A stretch of DNA of 64,000 nt from Escherichia coli (GTDB lineage: Bacteria; Pseudomonadota; Gammaproteobacteria; Enterobacterales; Enterobacteriaceae), in assembly GCF_044324785.1 (NCBI RefSeq), contig NZ_CP172127.1; one strand, given 5' to 3'. The notes beneath the pieces were generated by a model that saw only the letters and a list, made by a program, of their open reading frames with translations, did no database searches and was not told the DNA's origin. Position 1 is the stretch's first letter. Every line of letters starts with the position of its first letter. A program made the translations under genes and the position numbers. This document shows, in pieces, positions 51,724 to 60,290 of the stretch.

Positions 51724-52720
51724 GCCCATCGTTTTTAGTGGCGCACAGCCCTCAGGTGAATTGACCATTGGTAACTACATGGGTGCGCTGCGTCAGTGGG
51801 TAAACATGCAGGATGACTACCATTGCATTTACTGTATCGTTGACCAACACGCGATCACCGTGCGCCAGGATGCACAGAAGCTGCGTAAAGCGACGCTGGA
51901 TACGCTGGCCTTGTATCTGGCTTGTGGTATCGATCCTGAGAAAAGCACCATTTTTGTTCAGTCCCACGTGCCGGAACATGCGCAGTTAGGCTGGGCACTG
52001 AACTGCTATACCTACTTCGGCGAACTGAGCCGCATGACGCAGTTTAAAGATAAATCTGCGCGTTATGCCGAGAACATCAATGCTGGTCTGTTTGACTATC
52101 CGGTGCTGATGGCAGCGGACATCCTGCTGTATCAAACTAATCTGGTACCGGTGGGTGAAGACCAGAAACAGCACCTGGAACTGAGCCGCGATATCGCCCA
52201 GCGTTTCAACGCGCTGTATGGCGAGATCTTTAAAGTGCCGGAGCCGTTTATTCCGAAATCTGGCGCGCGCGTAATGTCGCTGCTGGAGCCGACCAAAAAG
52301 ATGTCCAAGTCTGACGATAACCGCAATAACGTTATCGGCCTGCTGGAAGATCCGAAATCGGTAGTGAAGAAAATCAAACGTGCGGTCACTGACTCCGACG
52401 AGCCGCCGGTAGTTCGCTACGATGTGCAGAACAAAGCGGGCGTTTCCAACCTGCTGGATATCCTTTCTGCGGTAACGGGCCAGAGCATCCCGGAACTGGA
52501 AAAACAGTTCGAAGGCAAGATGTATGGTCATCTGAAAGGTGAAGTGGCTGATGCCGTTTCCGGTATGCTGACTGAATTGCAGGAACGCTATCACCGTTTC
52601 CGCAACGATGAAGCCTTCCTGCAACAGGTGATGAAAGATGGCGCGGAAAAAGCCAGCGCGCACGCTTCCCGTACGCTAAAAGCGGTGTACGAAGCGATTG
52701 GTTTTGTGGCGAAGCCGTAA
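51716..52720 (+). CDS. trpS: tryptophan--tRNA ligase
   Basis: 334-aa class I aaRS with HIGH-like (TIGNYMGA) and KMSKS motifs; overlaps gph by 8 nt. Confidence 0.96.
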
Positions 52721-52736
52721 TTTAACATTAATGCCA

Positions 52737-52762
52737 AAAACCGGGGAAACCCGGTTTTTTTT
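52737..52762 (+). terminator. rho-independent terminator of the dam-rpe-gph-trpS transcript
   Basis: Stem AAAACCGGG/CCCGGTTTT with a GAAA loop followed by a T-run; 17 nt after the trpS stop. Confidence 0.8.
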
Positions 52763-52830
52763 ATCCTCATTTGCAATAATCCGAAAAAATGTGAAGCGCC
52801 TCGCCGTTTCCACATCTCGCAGTTGCCACT

Positions 52831-52852
52831 TATCTTCATTTTTATGAAGATA
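52831..52852. promoter_or_regulatory. perfect palindrome TATCTTCAT-TTTT-ATGAAGATA about 30 bp upstream of yhfZ (candidate operator)
   Basis: 9-bp perfect inverted repeat arms with a 4-bp spacer read directly; AT-rich, so more likely a protein-binding site than an RNA hairpin. Confidence 0.45.
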
Positions 52853-52880
52853 TAAATATTCACTTTATTGAAAATTTACT

Positions 52881-53786
52881 ATGCGTCGAACGTTTATCAA
52901 AAAAGAAGGCGTCGTCATCACGACACTGGCCCGTTATTTGTTGGGTGAAAAGTGCGGTAATCGACTGAAAACCATAGATGAGCTGGCAACTGAATGCCGT
53001 TCATCCGTTGGCCTGACGCAGGCCGCGTTGAAAACGCTGGAATCAAGCGGAGCGATACGGATTGAACGCCGTGGGCGCAATGGCAGTTATCTGGTGGAAA
53101 TGGATAACAAAGCATTGCTGAGTCATGTGGATATCAACAATGTGGTGTGCGCGATGCCCTTGCCCTATACCCGTTTGTACGAAGGCCTGGCGAGCGGATT
53201 GAAAGCTCAGTTTGATGGCATTCCTTTTTACTATGCGCATATGCGCGGCGCGGATATTCGCGTGGAGTGTTTACTTAACGGCGTGTATGACATGGCGGTT
53301 GTTTCCCGACTGGCGGCGGAAAGTTATCTCACGCAAAAAGGCTTATGCCTCGCGCTGGAGTTGGGGCCGCACACCTACGTTGGCGAGCACCAGTTGATTT
53401 GCCGTAAAGGCGAGTCCGCAAACGTGAAGCGTGTGGGGCTGGATAACCGTTCGGCGGATCAGAAAATCATGACCGATGTTTTTTTTGGCGATACGGATGT
53501 GGAACGAGTCGATCTCTCCTATCACGAGAGTTTACAACGCATTGTTAAAGGCGATGTTGATGCGGTTATCTGGAACGTGGTGGCGGAAAACGAACTGACC
53601 ATGCTGGGATTAGAAGCGACGCCGCTCACAGATGATCCGCGATTTTTACAGGCCACCGAAGCCGTGGTCCTGACGCGAGTCGATGATTACCCAATGCAAC
53701 AACTGCTGCGTGCAGTTGTTGATAAACATGCCCTGCTTGCCCATCAACAACGCGTGGTGAGTGGGGAACAGGAACCCAGTTATTAA
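52881..53786 (+). CDS. yhfZ: putative DNA-binding transcriptional regulator YhfZ (N-terminal winged HTH)
   Basis: 301-aa ORF MRRTFIKKEGVVITTLARYLLGEK...; matches my memory of YhfZ. Confidence 0.85.
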   Translation: MRRTFIKKEGVVITTLARYLLGEKCGNRLKTIDELATECRSSVGLTQAALKTLESSGAIRIERRGRNGSYLVEMDNKALLSHVDINNVVCAMPLPYTRLYEGLASGLKAQFDGIPFYYAHMRGADIRVECLLNGVYDMAVVSRLAAESYLTQKGLCLALELGPHTYVGEHQLICRKGESANVKRVGLDNRSADQKIMTDVFFGDTDVERVDLSYHESLQRIVKGDVDAVIWNVVAENELTMLGLEATPLTDDPRFLQATEAVVLTRVDDYPMQQLLRAVVDKHALLAHQQRVVSGEQEPSY

Positions 53787-53802
53787 ACGAAAGGCATCTG
53801 AT

Positions 53803-54165
53803 ATGGAAACCAGACTCAACCTGCTTTGCGATGCAGGCGTTATTGATAAGGACATCTGCAAAGGCATGATGCAGGTCGTCAAGGTACTGGAAACAGAGTG
53901 CCATCTGCCGGTGCGCAGTGAGCAAGGAACGATGGCAATGACACATATGGCGAGTGCACTGATGCGCAGTCGCCGTGGTGAAGAAATAGAGCCGCTGGAC
54001 GCCGAATTGCTGGCAGAACTGGCGCAATCCAGCCACTGGCAAGCCGTTGTGCAATTGCATCAGGTGTTGTTGAAGGAATTTACACTGGAAGTTAACCCGT
54101 GTGAAGAAGGCTATTTGCTGGCCAACCTTTATGGATTATGGATGGCTGCTAACGAAGAGGTTTGA
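53803..54165 (+). CDS. yhfY: PRD-domain protein YhfY
   Basis: Start set at METRLNLLCDAGVIDKD (120 aa); the ORF track extends 14 codons upstream into yhfZ. Confidence 0.85.
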   Translation: METRLNLLCDAGVIDKDICKGMMQVVKVLETECHLPVRSEQGTMAMTHMASALMRSRRGEEIEPLDAELLAELAQSSHWQAVVQLHQVLLKEFTLEVNPCEEGYLLANLYGLWMAANEEV

Positions 54166-54195
54166 AGCTCCCGACAAATCCACGTCGCACAACCT

Positions 54196-54219
54196 AAATA
54201 TTCAAAAAAATGAATATTT
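54196..54219. promoter_or_regulatory. perfect palindrome AAATATTCA-AAAAAA-TGAATATTT about 30 bp upstream of yhfX (candidate operator or RNA element)
   Basis: 9-bp perfect inverted repeat arms with a 6-bp A spacer read directly, in the yhfY-yhfX intergenic region. Confidence 0.45.
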
Positions 54220-54248
54220 AATTCAAGGAACAGAAACGAGGCAACAAG

Positions 54249-55412
54249 ATGTTTGTAGAAGCATTGAAACGCCAGAACCCGGCGCTAATTTCCGCCGCAC
54301 TAAGCTTGTGGCAAAAGGGCAAGATCGCCCCGGACAGCTGGGTGATCGACGTGGATCAGATACTGGAAAACGGTAAGCGGCTGATTGAGACGGCGCGGCT
54401 TTACGGCATTGAACTGTATCTGATGACCAAGCAGTTTGGTCGTAATCCGTGGCTGGCGGAAAAACTGCTGCCATTAGGCTACAGCGGCATTGTGGCGGTG
54501 GATTACAAAGAGGCGCGAGTCATGCGCCGCGCCGGTTTGCCGGTGGCGCATCAGGGGCATCTGGTACAAATCCCTTGTCATCAGGTTGCTGACGCCGTTG
54601 CACAGGGCACCGACGTCATCACCGTGTTTACTCTCGACAAAGCGCGGGAAGTTTCTGCGGCAGCGGTGAAGGCCGGACGTGTGCAGTCTGTGCTGCTCAA
54701 AGTTTATAGCGACGATGATTTTCTTTATCCGGGGCAGGAGAGCGGTTTTGTACAGCATTCGCTGCACGAGGTGGTTGCTGAAATTAAGAAACTGCCGGGG
54801 TTGCATTTAGCTGGACTAACCCATTTCCCTTGCCTGCTTTGGGATGAGGCTGCCGGGAAAGTTTTGCCGACACCGAATCTTCACACGCTGATACAGGCAC
54901 GGGATCAACTGGCGAAATCTGGTATTGCGATTGAGCAACTGAACGCACCTTCTGCGACCAGCTGCACTTCGCTGCCATTGCTGGCGGAATACGGTGTGAC
55001 TCATGCCGAACCCGGTCATGCGCTGACGGGCACTATTCCGGCAAACCAGCAGGGCGATCAGCCTGAACGTATCGCGATGCTCTGGTTAAGTGAAATCTCC
55101 CATCATTTCCGTGGCGACAGCTACTGCTACGGCGGCGGTTACTACCGTCGTGGTCATGCGCAACATGCGCTGGTGTTTACGCCAGAAAATCAAAAGATTA
55201 CTGAAACCAATCTCAAAGCCGTGGATGACAGCAGTATCGACTACACCCTGCCGCTGGCAGGTGAGTTTCCGGTAAGCAGTGCAGTAGTGCTCTGTTTTCG
55301 CACGCAGATTTTTGTCACCCGTAGCGATGTGGTGTTGCTGTCCGGTATTCACCGTGGCGAACCAGAAATCGTCGGTCGTTATGACAGTCTTGGAAACTCT
55401 CTGGGGGCGTAA
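54249..55412 (+). CDS. yhfX: putative PLP-dependent alanine-racemase-fold protein YhfX
   Basis: 387-aa [28 protein letters not shown]...; matches my memory of YhfX. Confidence 0.88.
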
Positions 55413-56638
55413 TGGCGCGATTTGTGGTGTTAGTGATTGATAGCTTTGGCGTAGGGGCAATGAAAGATGTCACGTTGGTGCGTCCGCAGGATGCCGGGGC
55501 GAATACCTGTGGTCACATCCTGAGCCAGTTGCCGCATTTGCAGCTACCAGCGCTGGAGAAGCTGGGGCTAATCAACGCATTGGGTTATGCACCAGGTGAT
55601 ATGCAGCCGTCAGACTCCGCAACTTGGGGTGTGGCAGAGCTGCAACATGAAGGTGGCGATACCTTTATGGGGCATCAGGAAATTTTAGGCACGCGCCCGT
55701 TACCGCCGCTGCGGATGCCCTTTCGTGATGTGATTGACCGTGTTGAGCAGGCATTAGTTTCCGCTGGCTGGCTGGTTGAGCGTCGTGGCGATGATCTGCA
55801 ATTTCTGTGGGTCAATCAGGCGGTTGCGATTGGCGATAATCTCGAGGCGGATTTAGGCCAGGTCTATAACATCACCGCCAATCTCTCTGTGATCTCTTTT
55901 GACGACGCAATCAAAATTGGTCGTATTGTGCGTGAGCAGGTACAGGTCGGTCGGGTCATTACATTTGGTGGCCTGTTAACCGACAGTCAACGCATTCTCG
56001 ATGCCGCAGAAAGCAAAGAAGGGCGCTTTATTGGTATCAATGCGCCGCGTTCTGGCGCTTATGACAACGGCTTCCAGGTCGTGCATATGGGCTACGGTGT
56101 CGATGAGAAAGTGCAGGTGCCGCAAAAACTGTATGAAGCGGGCGTGCCAACCGTGCTGGTGGGTAAGGTGGCGGATATTGTCAGCAATCCTTATGGCGTG
56201 AGCTGGCAAAACCTGGTGGATAGCCAACGGATTATGGATATCACTCTCAACGAATTTAACACCCATCCGACGGCGTTTATTTGTACCAATATCCAGGAAA
56301 CCGACCTCGCTGGTCATGCAGAAGACGTCGCACGTTATGCCGAACGTTTGCAGGTCGTTGACCGTAACCTTGCCCGGCTTATTGAGGCGATGCAGCCAGA
56401 TGATTGCCTGGTCGTGATGGCGGATCACGGTAACGATCCGACCATTGGTCACAGCCACCATACCCGCGAAGTGGTGCCAGTGCTGGTTTATCAGCAAGGG
56501 ATGGTCGCTACGCAGCTCGGTGTGCGCACCACGCTTTCTGATGTGGGGGCTACCGTGTGTGAATTTTTCCGTGCGCCACCGCCACAAAATGGTCGCTCTT
56601 TTCTTTCCTCCCTCCGGTTTGCAGGAGACACCCTATGA
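55412..56638 (+). CDS. yhfW: putative phosphopentomutase-like metalloenzyme YhfW
   Basis: 408-aa ORF; its ATG overlaps the yhfX stop by 1 nt; matches my memory of YhfW. Confidence 0.88.
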
Positions 56639-57513
56639 GTATTGATCCGACGGGTTACACCCTCGCCCATGAGCATCTGCATATTGATCTCTCCGGCTTT
56701 AAAAACAACGTGGACTGCCGCCTTGATCAGTATGCGTTCATTTGCCAGGAGATGAACGACCTGATGGCCCAGGGCGTGCGTAATGTGATTGAGATGACCA
56801 ACCGTTACATGGGGCGAAATGCGCAATTTATGCTCGATGTGATGCACGAAACTGGCATCAACGTGGTGGCCTGTACCGGTTATTACCAGGATGCGTTTTT
56901 CCCGCAACATGTGGCGACCCGCAGCGTACAGGAACTGGCGCAGGAGATGGTCGATGAAATTGATCAGGGTATCGATGGCACGGAACTGAAAGCCGGGATC
57001 ATCGCGGAGATCGGCTCCAGCGAAGGGAAGATTACGCCGCTGGAAGAGAAGGTGTTTATTGCCGCCGCGCTGGCACATAACCAGACCGGACGCCCGATCT
57101 CCACGCATACGTCGTTCAGCACGATGGGGCTGGAACAACTGGCTCTGTTGCAAGCCCACGGAGTTAATCTTTCGCGCGTCACCGTTGGTCACTGCGATCT
57201 GAAAGACAACCTCGACAACATTTTGAAGATGATCGATCTCGGCGCGTATGTGCAGTTCGACACCATCGGCAAGAACAGTTACTACCCGGACGAAAGGCGC
57301 ATTGCGATGCTCCACGCGCTACGTGACCGTGGTTTGCTGAACCGCGTCATGCTGTCGATGGATATTACGCGCCGCTCCCATTTAAAAGCCAACGGTGGTT
57401 ATGGCTATGACTATTTATTGACCACCTTTATTCCGCAATTGCGCCAGTCAGGATTCAGTCAGGCCGATGTGGATGTGATGTTACGTGAAACTCCCTCTCA
57501 ATTTTTCCAATAA
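56635..57513 (+). CDS. php: phosphotriesterase homology protein
   Basis: 292-aa [25 protein letters not shown] (amidohydrolase HxH metal motif); ATGA overlap with yhfW. Confidence 0.9.
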
Positions 57514-57523
57514 GGACAGACTC

Positions 57524-57877
57524 ATGAAAAAGATTGGTGTTGCAGGCTTACAGCGTGAGCAGATTAAAAAAACCATTGAAGCGACGGCTCCTGGCTGTTT
57601 TGAAGTTTTCATTCACAACGACATGGAAGCGGCAATGAAAGTCAAATCCGGGCAACTGGATTACTACATCGGCGCGTGTAATACCGGTGCGGGCGCGGCA
57701 TTGTCGATTGCCATCGCGGTGATTGGCTATAACAAAAGTTGCACCATTGCCAAACCAGGCATTAAAGCGAAAGACGAACATATCGCCAAAATGATCGCCG
57801 AAGGGAAAGTGGCGTTTGGGCTTTCCGTTGAGCACGTCGAACACGCGATTCCGATGCTGATTAACCATCTGAAATAA
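57524..57877 (+). CDS. yhfU: uncharacterised protein YhfU
   Basis: Start set at MKKIGVAGLQREQIKK (117 aa); the ORF track extends 13 codons upstream. Confidence 0.85.
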   Translation: MKKIGVAGLQREQIKKTIEATAPGCFEVFIHNDMEAAMKVKSGQLDYYIGACNTGAGAALSIAIAVIGYNKSCTIAKPGIKAKDEHIAKMIAEGKVAFGLSVEHVEHAIPMLINHLK

Positions 57878-57888
57878 AAGGCACGACT

Positions 57889-59193
57889 ATGGATCTGTAT
57901 ATTCAGATTATCGTGGTGGCGTGCCTGACGGGTATGACATCGCTTCTGGCGCATCGCTCGGCGGCCGTTTTTCATGACGGTATCCGCCCGATCCTGCCGC
58001 AACTGATTGAAGGCTATATGAACCGTCGCGAGGCGGGGAGTATCGCTTTTGGTCTGAGCATTGGTTTTGTGGCTTCGGTGGGGATCTCTTTTACCCTGAA
58101 AACCGGACTGCTCAACGCATGGTTACTCTTTCTTCCTACCGATATCCTCGGCGTACTGGCGATAAACAGCCTGATGGCGTTTGGTCTTGGCGCTATCTGG
58201 GGCGTGTTGATCCTTACTTGCCTGTTACCGGTAAACCAGCTGCTGACCGCGCTACCGGTGGATGTATTAGGTAGCCTGGGGGAATTAAGCTCGCCGGTGG
58301 TTTCAGCTTTTGCACTGTTCCCGTTGGTGGCGATTTTCTACCAGTTTGGCTGGAAGCAAAGTCTGATCGCCGCCGTGGTGGTACTGATGACCCGTGTGGT
58401 GGTAGTGCGCTATTTCCCGCATCTCAATCCGGAATCCATCGAAATCTTTATTGGCATGGTGATGCTGCTGGGGATCGCGATAACTCACGACCTGCGTCAT
58501 CGTGATGAAAATGATATTGATGCCAGCGGGCTTTCGGTGTTTGAAGAACGCACGTCGCGGATTATCAAAAACTTACCGTATATCGCTATTGTCGGGGCGC
58601 TGATTGCCGCCGTTGCCAGCATGAAGATTTTTGCTGGCAGTGAAGTGTCGATCTTCACACTGGAGAAAGCATATTCCGCAGGCGTAACGCCGGAACAATC
58701 ACAAACGCTGATTAACCAGGCAGCTCTGGCGGAATTTATGCGCGGGCTGGGTTTTGTACCGTTGATTGCCACCACCGCGTTAGCCACTGGTGTGTATGCA
58801 GTTGCGGGCTTTACCTTTGTTTATGCGGTGGGCTATCTCTCGCCGAATCCGATGGTTGCAGCGGTATTAGGCGCAGTGGTTATTTCGGCGGAAGTCCTGC
58901 TGCTTCGTTCGATCGGCAAATGGCTGGGGCGCTATCCGTCGGTGCGTAATGCGTCAGATAACATCCGTAACGCCATGAATATGCTGATGGAAGTGGCGTT
59001 GCTGGTCGGTTCGATTTTCGCAGCAATTAAAATGGCGGGTTATACCGGATTTTCTATCGCAGTTGCCATTTACTTCCTCAACGAATCCCTGGGCCGTCCG
59101 GTACAGAAAATGGCGGCACCGGTCGTGGCAGTAATGATCACCGGTATTCTGCTGAATGTTCTTTACTGGTTTGGCCTGTTCGTTCCGGCTTAA
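57889..59193 (+). CDS. yhfT: putative inner membrane transporter YhfT
   Basis: 434-aa polytopic membrane ORF. Confidence 0.88.
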   Translation: MDLYIQIIVVACLTGMTSLLAHRSAAVFHDGIRPILPQLIEGYMNRREAGSIAFGLSIGFVASVGISFTLKTGLLNAWLLFLPTDILGVLAINSLMAFGLGAIWGVLILTCLLPVNQLLTALPVDVLGSLGELSSPVVSAFALFPLVAIFYQFGWKQSLIAAVVVLMTRVVVVRYFPHLNPESIEIFIGMVMLLGIAITHDLRHRDENDIDASGLSVFEERTSRIIKNLPYIAIVGALIAAVASMKIFAGSEVSIFTLEKAYSAGVTPEQSQTLINQAALAEFMRGLGFVPLIATTALATGVYAVAGFTFVYAVGYLSPNPMVAAVLGAVVISAEVLLLRSIGKWLGRYPSVRNASDNIRNAMNMLMEVALLVGSIFAAIKMAGYTGFSIAVAIYFLNESLGRPVQKMAAPVVAVMITGILLNVLYWFGLFVPA

Positions 59194-59204
59194 GGAAGGC
59201 ACCT

Positions 59205-60290
59205 ATGAAGACGTATCCTTTGCAAAGCCTGACGCTTATTGAGGCGCAGCAAAAGCAGTTTGCGCTGGTGGACACGATTTGCCGCCATTTTCCCGGCAGC
59301 GAGTTTCTTACCCGCGGGGATTTGGGCTTAACGCCGGGGCTGAATCAACCGCGCATTACCCAGCGAGTGGAACAGGTGCTGGCTGATGCATTTCACGCAC
59401 AGGCTGCGGCGCTGGTACAGGGCGCGGGTACTGGCGCGATCCGTGCGGCGTTGGCGGCTTTGCTCATACCGGGGCAGCGTCTTCTGGTGCATGACGCGCC
59501 TGTTTACCCGACGACTCAGGTCATTATTGAGCAGATGGGGCTGACGCTTATTACTGCTAATTTCAATGACCTGTCGGCACTTAAGCAGGTCGTCGAAGAG
59601 CAACAACCGGATGCGGCTCTGGTGCAGCATACGCGCCAGCAGCCGCAGGACGGGTACATTCTGGCAGATGTGCTGGCAACGTTGCGCTCGGCTGGCGTTC
59701 CTGCATTAACCGATGACAACTATGCGGTGATGAAGGTAGCGCGAATTGGCTGCGAATGCGGGGCAAATGTCTCGACTTTTTCCTGCTTCAAGCTGTTTGG
59801 GCCGGAGGGTGTTGGCGCGGTGGTAGGCGATGCCGATGTTATTAGTCGGATTCGCGCCACGCTCTACTCCGGCGGCAGCCAGATTCAGGGCGCTCAGGCG
59901 TTGGAAGTCTTGCGTGGGCTGGTGTTTGCGCCAGTGATGCACGCGGTGCAGGCGGGGGTATCTGAACGGTTGCTGGCCTTGCTCAACGGTGGTGCAGTTC
60001 CGGAAGTGAAAAGCGCCGTCATTGCCAATGCACAGTCGAAGGTGTTGATTGTCGAGTTTCATCAGCCGATTGCCGCCAGAGTGCTGGAAGAGGCGCAAAA
60101 GCGCGGTGCCTTGCCTTACCCGGTTGGTGCAGAGTCGAAATATGAAGTTCCGCCACTTTTTTATCGACTTTCCGGAACGTTTCGCCAGGCGAATCCGCAA
60201 CTCGAACATTACGCGATTCGTATTAACCCAAATCGCAGCGGTGAAGAGACGGTGCTGCGGATTTTGCGTGAGAGTATTGCGAGTATTTAA
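59205..60290 (+). CDS. yhfS: putative PLP-dependent aminotransferase-fold protein YhfS
   Basis: 361-aa ORF MKTYPLQSLTLIEAQQKQFALVDTI...; matches my memory of YhfS. Confidence 0.88.
   Translation: MKTYPLQSLTLIEAQQKQFALVDTICRHFPGSEFLTRGDLGLTPGLNQPRITQRVEQVLADAFHAQAAALVQGAGTGAIRAALAALLIPGQRLLVHDAPVYPTTQVIIEQMGLTLITANFNDLSALKQVVEEQQPDAALVQHTRQQPQDGYILADVLATLRSAGVPALTDDNYAVMKVARIGCECGANVSTFSCFKLFGPEGVGAVVGDADVISRIRATLYSGGSQIQGAQALEVLRGLVFAPVMHAVQAGVSERLLALLNGGAVPEVKSAVIANAQSKVLIVEFHQPIAARVLEEAQKRGALPYPVGAESKYEVPPLFYRLSGTFRQANPQLEHYAIRINPNRSGEETVLRILRESIASI

Follow-up and report, generated by a model that had tools for sequence, protein, structure and literature searches.

The DNA analysed in this work is a stretch of 64,000 nt from contig NZ_CP172127.1 of Escherichia coli (assembly GCF_044324785.1), referred to below as the window. 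By mapping of open reading frames (ORFs) and by comparison with Pfam and NCBIfam, the genes trpS, yhfZ, yhfY, yhfX, yhfW, php, yhfU, yhfT and yhfS were placed on its plus strand, in the same order as the cluster b3376-b3383 of strain K-12, in which yhfX to yhfS are b3381-b3376. Elsewhere in the cluster neighbouring genes abut or overlap, both in the window and in K-12, unlike yhfY and yhfX, which are separated by a spacer of 83 nt extending from the yhfY stop codon (54163-54165) to the yhfX ATG (54249). This spacer contains the palindrome that is the subject of this report, named O3; two related palindromes, named O1 and O2, precede yhfZ. The 83-nt spacer is present in 5,074 of 5,426 complete E. 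coli genomes (about 93%), with at least 99% identity in 3,155 of them and at a median of one place per genome, and it carries no annotation there. An identity of at least 99% over the 1.8 kb from 52600 to 54400 of the window was found in only 13 of 5,425 E. coli genomes, and the nearest YhfZ locus to that of the window is that of Escherichia sp. MOD1-EC7003 (L002); the window is thus probably derived from an atypical or cryptic-clade Escherichia and not from a mainstream E. coli. On the K-12 chromosome (NC_000913.3), O3 corresponds to 3511006-3511029, O2 to 3512348-3512371 and O1 to 3512372-3512395.

O3 is a perfect dyad composed of TAAATATTCA (54195-54204), the spacer AAAAAA and TGAATATTTA (54211-54220); its arms are 10 bp and its spacer 6 nt in length, and it ends 28 nt before the yhfX ATG. 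An earlier note on this DNA had described a perfect palindrome shortly upstream of yhfX, and reading of the sequence confirmed that it is genuine. The letters given there for 54196-54219, AAATATTCA-AAAAAA-TGAATATTT, are exact; the arm length of 9 bp needs correction, since each arm gains one further base, and the stem is not composed of A and T only, because each arm has one C/G (in TTCA/TGAA). The expected number of perfect inverted repeats with arms of at least 10 and spacers of at most 10 nt is 0.96 in a dinucleotide-shuffled window (standard deviation 1.24), and the same search of the real window returned 18 entries at about 11 places. All of these besides O3 hold several G/C pairs, and many of them resemble the stems of terminators or of repetitive extragenic palindromic (REP) elements. 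The recurrence of the motif is a stronger argument against chance than the perfection of the palindrome. Another perfect palindrome with 10-bp arms, CAACAACTGC-TGCGT-GCAGTTGTTG, lies within yhfZ (53697-53721); its codons specify QQLLRAVVD, synonymous substitutions disrupt it in other species, and it was rejected as a functional element and considered to be a by-product of the codons.

The motif of O3 occurs twice more in the window. O2, TAAATATTCA-CTTTAT-TGAAAATTTA, agrees with O3 at 19 of the 20 arm positions, has the same spacing of 6 nt and ends 2 nt before the yhfZ ATG. O1, TATCTTCA-TTTTTA-TGAAGATA (dyad 52831-52852), adjoins O2; when it is aligned on TTCA-N6-TGAA, the core common to all three sites is ATnTTCA-N6-TGAAnAT. 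The pattern ATATTCA-N6-TGAATAT with at most two mismatches matched three times in the 64 kb, at O1, O2 and O3 only, against 0.07 matches expected, and the 26-nt pattern with at most three mismatches matched twice, against 0.00 expected. In another E. coli strain the spacers are AATTCC at O1 (TTTTTA in the window) and ATTTAC at O2 (CTTTAT in the window), and the arms are unchanged.

The box was then followed through relatives. The alignment of YhfZ orthologues gave 80 loci on contigs taken at one genome per species, in which the genes were mapped by tblastn. The genera represented include Escherichia, Citrobacter, Klebsiella, Trabulsiella, Buttiauxella, Cedecea, Photorhabdus, Xenorhabdus, Serratia, Providencia, Vibrio and Photobacterium, and the YhfZ identity across them ranges from 45 to 99%, with 45-48% in Vibrionaceae. 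A 24-nt weight matrix was built from 139 distinct sites and used with a threshold of at least 14 bits to scan 686 kb of the orthologous loci. A box was found upstream of yhfX in 75 of 75 Enterobacterales loci, in a spacer that has diverged beyond recognition around it, and within 200 nt upstream of yhfZ in 78 of 80 loci including those of Vibrionaceae, centred near -39, near -15 or at both places relative to the ATG. The two loci lacking a box upstream of yhfZ are those of Pluralibacter gergoviae, where yhfY comes before yhfZ and the box before yhfY, and of Xenorhabdus szentirmaii. The scan gave 215 matches, 209 of them at the expected positions: 133 were upstream of yhfZ, 74 upstream of yhfX, one upstream of yhfY (L040, P. 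gergoviae) and one was an O3 copy displaced by an insertion (L038); five others were inside php of Vibrionaceae and one was a weak match elsewhere. At the same threshold, the only sites in the window were 52830-53, 52854-77 and 54196-219.

The columns of the TTCA/TGAA core are conserved to 99-100% in the 139 distinct sites, and half-site position 5 and the A/T-rich spacer vary. The two cores are 10 bp apart from centre to centre, or about one helical turn, and this geometry is the same in all of these sites. Around O3, column conservation across the loci places information in the box columns only. Among Enterobacterales, the box precedes the yhfX ATG by 41-80 nt and follows the yhfY stop codon by 10-66 nt, and the whole non-coding spacer measures 73-140 nt (237 nt in L038). 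Because the distance between O3 and the ATG varies in this way, the position of O3 is independent of the ribosome-binding site. In Photorhabdus asymbiotica (L038, 5350-5525) about 120 extra bases lie between the O3 box and yhfX, so that the box is 187 nt from the ATG. In Xenorhabdus (e.g. L052-L076), a genus-conserved sequence, CACACAGCCTTGCTGCTTTGCAG, with a GCTGC-TTT-GCAGC hairpin, is found about 15-40 nt before the yhfX ATG, ahead of the ribosome-binding site; this hairpin may be a structure of the 5' untranslated region. The gene content and order also differ in some of the relatives: yhfW is missing in Photorhabdus and Xenorhabdus (within L036-L076), the order is yhfY-yhfZ-yhfX in P. gergoviae, and it is yhfZ-yhfY-php-yhfU-yhfT-yhfX in Vibrionaceae (L077-L081).

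A single weight matrix fits all three positions across the 80 loci, which argues for one regulator with three operators. The earlier note had taken the palindrome before yhfX to differ from the yhfZ palindrome, which is O1, and had deduced two distinct control inputs. This is not supported, given the 19/20 copy standing beside the yhfZ palindrome and the common core, and the sequences point to one control input, exerted by one regulator at three operators, and not to two.

The candidate for this regulator is YhfZ itself. The structure of its C-terminal domain is available (2OZZ), and the residues S42 V43 G44, Q47 and G65 R66 N67 G68 of its helix-turn-helix (HTH) and wing are invariant from Escherichia to Photobacterium, in keeping with the constancy of the box core. 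The YhfZ family was found by exhaustive search to comprise 662 clusters at 50% identity, and the contigs of eight distant representatives were compared. Beside the homologue with 38% identity to the YhfZ of the window (L083), a box, TTTTCAAAAAAATGAAGA, ends 2 nt before the start codon, and beside that with 35% identity (L084) the box AAAATTCA-AAATAT-TGAATATT likewise precedes the start codon. In L086/L087 (34% identity, G+C fraction about 0.32), one box is situated upstream of yhfZ just downstream of a clear TTGACA-N16-TAAACT promoter, and two further boxes are present in a 284-nt spacer before PRD-PTE-DUF2620-YhfT-YhfS genes. L090 (33% identity) has one box at -15 of yhfZ and another just after yhfZ. 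These boxes beside homologues of 33-38% identity sit in low-GC metagenomic contigs with unrelated flanks. No TTCA-N6-TGAA box was found in L085, L088 and L089 (28-39% identity). The recognition helix starts with SVG in six of six proteins with a box, and none of the three proteins with GNG, GRG or SRG has one (n = 9 proteins). The box tracks the yhfZ gene and its DNA-reading residues, as is expected of a YhfZ operator and not of a site for a global factor. These comparisons suggest that YhfZ binds the box, and we consider it quite likely that O3 is a DNA operator of YhfZ whose occupancy prevents transcription of yhfX-yhfS. In L088 (3900-4000) and L089 (60-120), whose helices have GRG or SRG, other palindromes occur upstream, for example GTACAA-TATT-TTGTAC, and these may represent diverged operator specificity within the YhfZ family.

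Table 1. Positions in the window of the yhfZ-yhfS genes, the predicted YhfZ operators and associated signals
Feature	Position	Strand	Remarks
CRP-like site TGTGA-AGCGCC-TCGCC	52790..52805	no strand	best match to the CRP consensus upstream of yhfZ; putative function
TTGCCA, -35-like hexamer	52823..52828	+	abuts O1; TTGnnn strongly conserved at this place
O1	52830..52853	no strand	30.9 bits; conserved, centre -39 from yhfZ ATG
O2	52853..52878	no strand	conserved, centre -15 from yhfZ ATG; 19/20 copy of O3
yhfZ	52881..53786	+	HTH_41 winged helix (PF14502) + YhfZ_C (PF14503); NCBIfam equivalog NF041241, 373 bits
yhfY	53803..54165	+	120-aa stand-alone PRD-like protein
O3	54195..54220	no strand	predicted YhfZ operator at the entry to yhfX; weight matrix 32.6 bits
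GAGG, Shine-Dalgarno of yhfX	54238..54241	+	7 nt before ATG, 17 nt downstream of O3; GAGGC kept in most Enterobacterales
yhfX-yhfW-php-yhfU-yhfT-yhfS	54249..60290	+	genes for enzymes and membrane proteins; control through O3 predicted

In the proposed mechanism, a YhfZ dimer would bind double-stranded O3, with each monomer reading one ATnTTCA half-site, and the occupied O3 would keep RNA polymerase off yhfXW-php-yhfUTS. The same YhfZ would also bind the tandem O1 and O2 over its own core promoter and start region, which would result in autorepression of yhfZ. Release would be brought about by a small molecule acting on the C-terminal domain of YhfZ, possibly together with the PRD-like YhfY.

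The layout upstream of yhfZ suggests a CRP class I promoter. Among the O1-bearing loci, the CRP-like site precedes O1 by 44 bp, measured between centres, with two exceptions at 42 and 43 bp. If CRP is assumed to be at -61.5, the TTGCCA hexamer (-33.5) would be the -35 element, GAAGAT in the right arm of O1 would be the -10 element and transcription would start near 52858; O1 would then be centred at -17.5 and O2 at +6.5, which are textbook positions for a repressor. As an alternative, yhfZ might be transcribed from its ATG as a leaderless message, with GAAAAT in the right arm of O2 as the -10 element. A sigma-54 promoter was considered for the conserved TTGC before O1 and was rejected on inspection of the sequence, as the GG at -24 and the proper spacing are missing. 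Further upstream, a bacterial interspersed mosaic element (BIME) precedes yhfZ in K-12 (PMC2965389), and K-12-type E. coli (L001, 421-570) has about 130 extra REP/BIME-like bases between trpS and yhfZ. The window is without this insert (52721-52760), and the trpS terminator runs directly into the yhfZ promoter region: directly after trpS, at 52736-52759, there is AAAAACCGGG-GAAA-CCCGGTTTTT followed by a T-run, which looks like an intrinsic terminator symmetric enough to serve both directions.

Several points weigh against YhfZ repressing from O3 in the way proposed. The spacer of O3 is almost invariably AAAAAA across the loci, against variable spacers at O1 and O2, and simple half-site recognition does not account for this. 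A consensus scan calls no sigma-70 promoter on the plus strand near O3; E. coli is without a recognisable -35 element upstream of O3, and none is conserved across genera. The co-variation of recognition helix and box comes from the small sample of nine proteins. We infer repression rather than activation from position only, and no binding experiment or start-site data for O3 were found in the searched literature and supplements. The latter comprised supplements on Cappable-seq, in vitro run-off transcription (ROSE), operon architecture and expression compendia, which contain nothing for these coordinates or genes.

With regard to how an occupied O3 would act, occlusion of a weak internal promoter may well be the mode, a possibility to which we give somewhat less than even credence. 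Two candidate -10 elements can be recognised at O3. The first consists of the spacer plus one T, AAAAAT, with TTGATT 17 bp upstream in Xenorhabdus; such a -10 element would explain why the A6 spacer is nearly invariant at O3. The second is the right arm (GAATAT, GATTAT or GATGAT), in the same layout as at O1, with TTCACC, TTCACA or TTTCCA 18 bp upstream as partners in Citrobacter, Cedecea and Photorhabdus. A possible CRP site before O3 (TTTGA-N6-CGACA, 54161-54176) was rejected, because it has three mismatches, overlaps the yhfY stop codon, is spaced differently (39 bp) and, judged by eye, is not conserved across genera.

A tentative alternative is that O3 has no promoter of its own and is an auxiliary YhfZ operator, serving as a roadblock to readthrough from the yhfZ promoter or forming a loop with O1/O2 about 1.35 kb upstream. 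This would agree with the conservation of the box alone, and of no -35 element, around O3 and with the lack of a -35 element there in E. coli. It is further favoured by Vibrionaceae, whose php gene contains a second box about 180 nt into its coding region; the distance from there to the yhfZ-proximal box is about 1.49 kb, against 1.34-1.37 kb between the corresponding boxes of the window. This box (Vibrio and Photobacterium, L077-L081, at about 5457-5494; e.g. AAATCCTCA-ATTTAT-TGAGGATTT) scores 21-25 bits and is not present in enterobacterial php; in Photobacterium the palindrome is kept despite a change of the peptide from RNPQFIE to RNHHFIE (PQ to HH). Since the php box is intragenic, it cannot be the operator of a php promoter, and the distal box sits just after yhfY in both Enterobacterales and Vibrionaceae. 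On the other hand, every Enterobacterales locus retains the non-coding spacer between yhfY and yhfX although the other genes abut or overlap, and several genera have a TTnnnn hexamer 17-18 nt before the -10-like right arm, such as TTCACA...GATGAT. The two boxes of the distant cluster L086/L087 lie in a promoter-like spacer before enzyme genes, and one published table reproduces an operon list in which the operon begins at yhfX. Occlusion of an internal promoter and action as a roadblock or through a loop are not mutually exclusive.

Whatever the mode of action, YhfY might take part in it. For YhfY, no Pfam match was obtained, and its score against TIGR03582 is 28.7 bits, below the cutoff of 69. 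The AlphaFold model (AF2; predicted local distance difference test, pLDDT, 93.7) is a six-helix bundle with no beta domain, and five of its top seven fold matches (ranks 1, 4, 5, 6 and 7) are PRDs of LicT, GlcT and LSEI_2718, with template modelling (TM) scores of 0.51-0.61 and weak E-values. According to this model, YhfY is plausibly a stand-alone PRD-like domain. It is without the RNA-binding CAT domain that is the hallmark of antiterminators. His48 (H48) of YhfY is invariant in the orthologue alignment. Because yhfY is next to yhfZ in all 80 loci, it is a reasonable inference that YhfY is a partner of YhfZ. A more specific proposal, which we regard as rather unlikely, is a two-protein switch in which phosphorylation of YhfY His48 by the phosphotransferase system (PTS) controls YhfZ in trans on DNA and the proximal and distal operators cooperate by a loop or roadblock. 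YhfZ would then be a winged-helix repressor with an effector domain resembling periplasmic binding proteins, and the regulators would be made while the enzyme genes remain silent. If true, PRD signalling would here be wired in a novel way, with conservation reaching from E. coli to low-GC bacteria.

That YhfZ activates a weak yhfX promoter at the box, instead of repressing it, is improbable. Any promoter at O3 would have poor -35 and -10 elements in Escherichia, as is typical of activator-dependent promoters, and the box centre is 41.5 nt before the ATG in the Escherichia/Citrobacter group. However, the box-to-ATG distance varies among the loci and no downstream element is fixed, and the boxes at yhfZ and in L086 are placed over the presumed core promoter or just after it, where a repressor would be expected. 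Moreover, a class II position in E. coli would put the transcription start at the ATG despite the conserved Shine-Dalgarno sequence.

It is very improbable that the box is bound by another protein, either a global regulator or a nucleoid protein (H-NS, Fis, IHF or ArgR). The site is AT-rich with an A-tract, and the pentamers ATTCA and TGAAT are similar to half-sites of the ARG box, though oppositely oriented. However, the box accompanies yhfZ in Vibrionaceae and in low-GC organisms whose flanking sequences are unrelated, it is missing from loci in which the recognition helix of YhfZ differs, and in the 64 kb plus 686 kb scanned the matrix matches are confined to cluster positions except for the one weak match. 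The TTCA-N6-TGAA geometry fits neither CRP (TGTGA-N6-TCACA) nor ArgR (TGAAT-N4-ATTCA); O3 was accordingly rejected as a CRP site, since it reads ATTCA-N6-TGAAT.

The possibility, raised in the earlier note, of an RNA-level element, which would here be a terminator hairpin in the yhfY-yhfX transcript or a site for PRD-type antitermination by YhfY, is extremely unlikely: a 10-bp hairpin can be formed by the 30-nt RNA (-7.4 kcal/mol; z = -11 relative to shuffled sequences) and YhfY has a PRD-like fold, but no compensatory change was seen in 56 distinct O3 orthologues (87.0% paired versus 87.2% in shuffled columns; covariation score 0.037 versus 0.036 in shuffles; one pair broken in 30 and another in 14 of the 56), the stem of nine A-U pairs and one G-C pair is followed by AUUCAAGG and not by a U-run, the terminator scan calls nothing at O3, the Rfam scan gave only sub-threshold chance matches, the same box is also present upstream, in the promoter region of yhfZ, and has other spacers elsewhere, and YhfY is a single all-helical domain of 120 aa without a CAT domain. 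The preference of the same note for a DNA operator over an RNA element is supported by the conservation footprint, the co-occurrence of box and YhfZ and the lack of RNA signals.

The yhfZYXW-php-yhfUTS cluster, whose yhfY-yhfX spacer is so common among E. coli genomes, is decades old and without a known substrate, inducer or regulation. In the literature searched on the yhf genes, the Php operon and chromatin immunoprecipitation-exonuclease (ChIP-exo) mapping of uncharacterised transcription factors, no study of YhfZ binding, its regulon or inducer, or of the yhfY-yhfX spacer was found. Within this literature the box appears to be undescribed; the type of element is classical. With its three copies of 20-24 bp, the box offers an experimental way into a widespread cluster of unexplained function, and the weight matrix can be used for defining the regulon in any genome with a YhfZ homologue.

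Comparison with known systems places O3 apart from several kinds of palindrome. Like REP and BIME sequences, it is intergenic; unlike them, it is AT-rich, single-copy per genome and kept at one syntenic position in different orders, and it was rejected as such an element because it is neither dispersed in multiple copies nor G+C-rich. It was also rejected as an intrinsic terminator, as its stem is not G+C-rich and is followed by no U-run. The PRD antiterminators BglG, SacY and LicT with their ribonucleic antiterminator (RAT) targets resemble the present case in that a PRD-like gene adjoins the element and a hairpin can be drawn. Unlike them, YhfY has no CAT domain and one PRD-like domain instead of two, no terminator or covariation is found, and the YhfZ box also occurs in untranscribed promoter DNA. 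A switch on DNA composed of a PRD protein and a repressor is hinted at here and would be unusual if confirmed. The arrangement of promoter-proximal operators plus a distal copy is like that of lac O1/O2/O3 and gal OE/OI, with the distal copy located within the first enzyme gene in the case of Vibrionaceae. The operator separations are 92 and 401 bp in lac and about 113 bp in gal, unlike the YhfZ boxes, which are separated by about 1.35-1.5 kb with two regulatory genes between them.

The closest likeness is to local autoregulated catabolic repressors of the GntR superfamily (e.g. FadR) and of the LacI/GalR type. As in those systems, the box is a dyad with half-sites about one helical turn apart, the adjacent regulator gene has its own box, the boxes would lie on or just after the core promoter, a CRP-like site is located upstream, and the C-terminal domain of YhfZ resembles a ligand-binding domain. 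YhfZ differs from those repressors in having HTH_41 and YhfZ_C instead of a FadR, HutC, MocR, YtrA or LacI effector domain, and the GntR-type consensus does not resemble ATnTTCA-N6-TGAAnAT. In these features O3 behaves as the operators of such repressors do.

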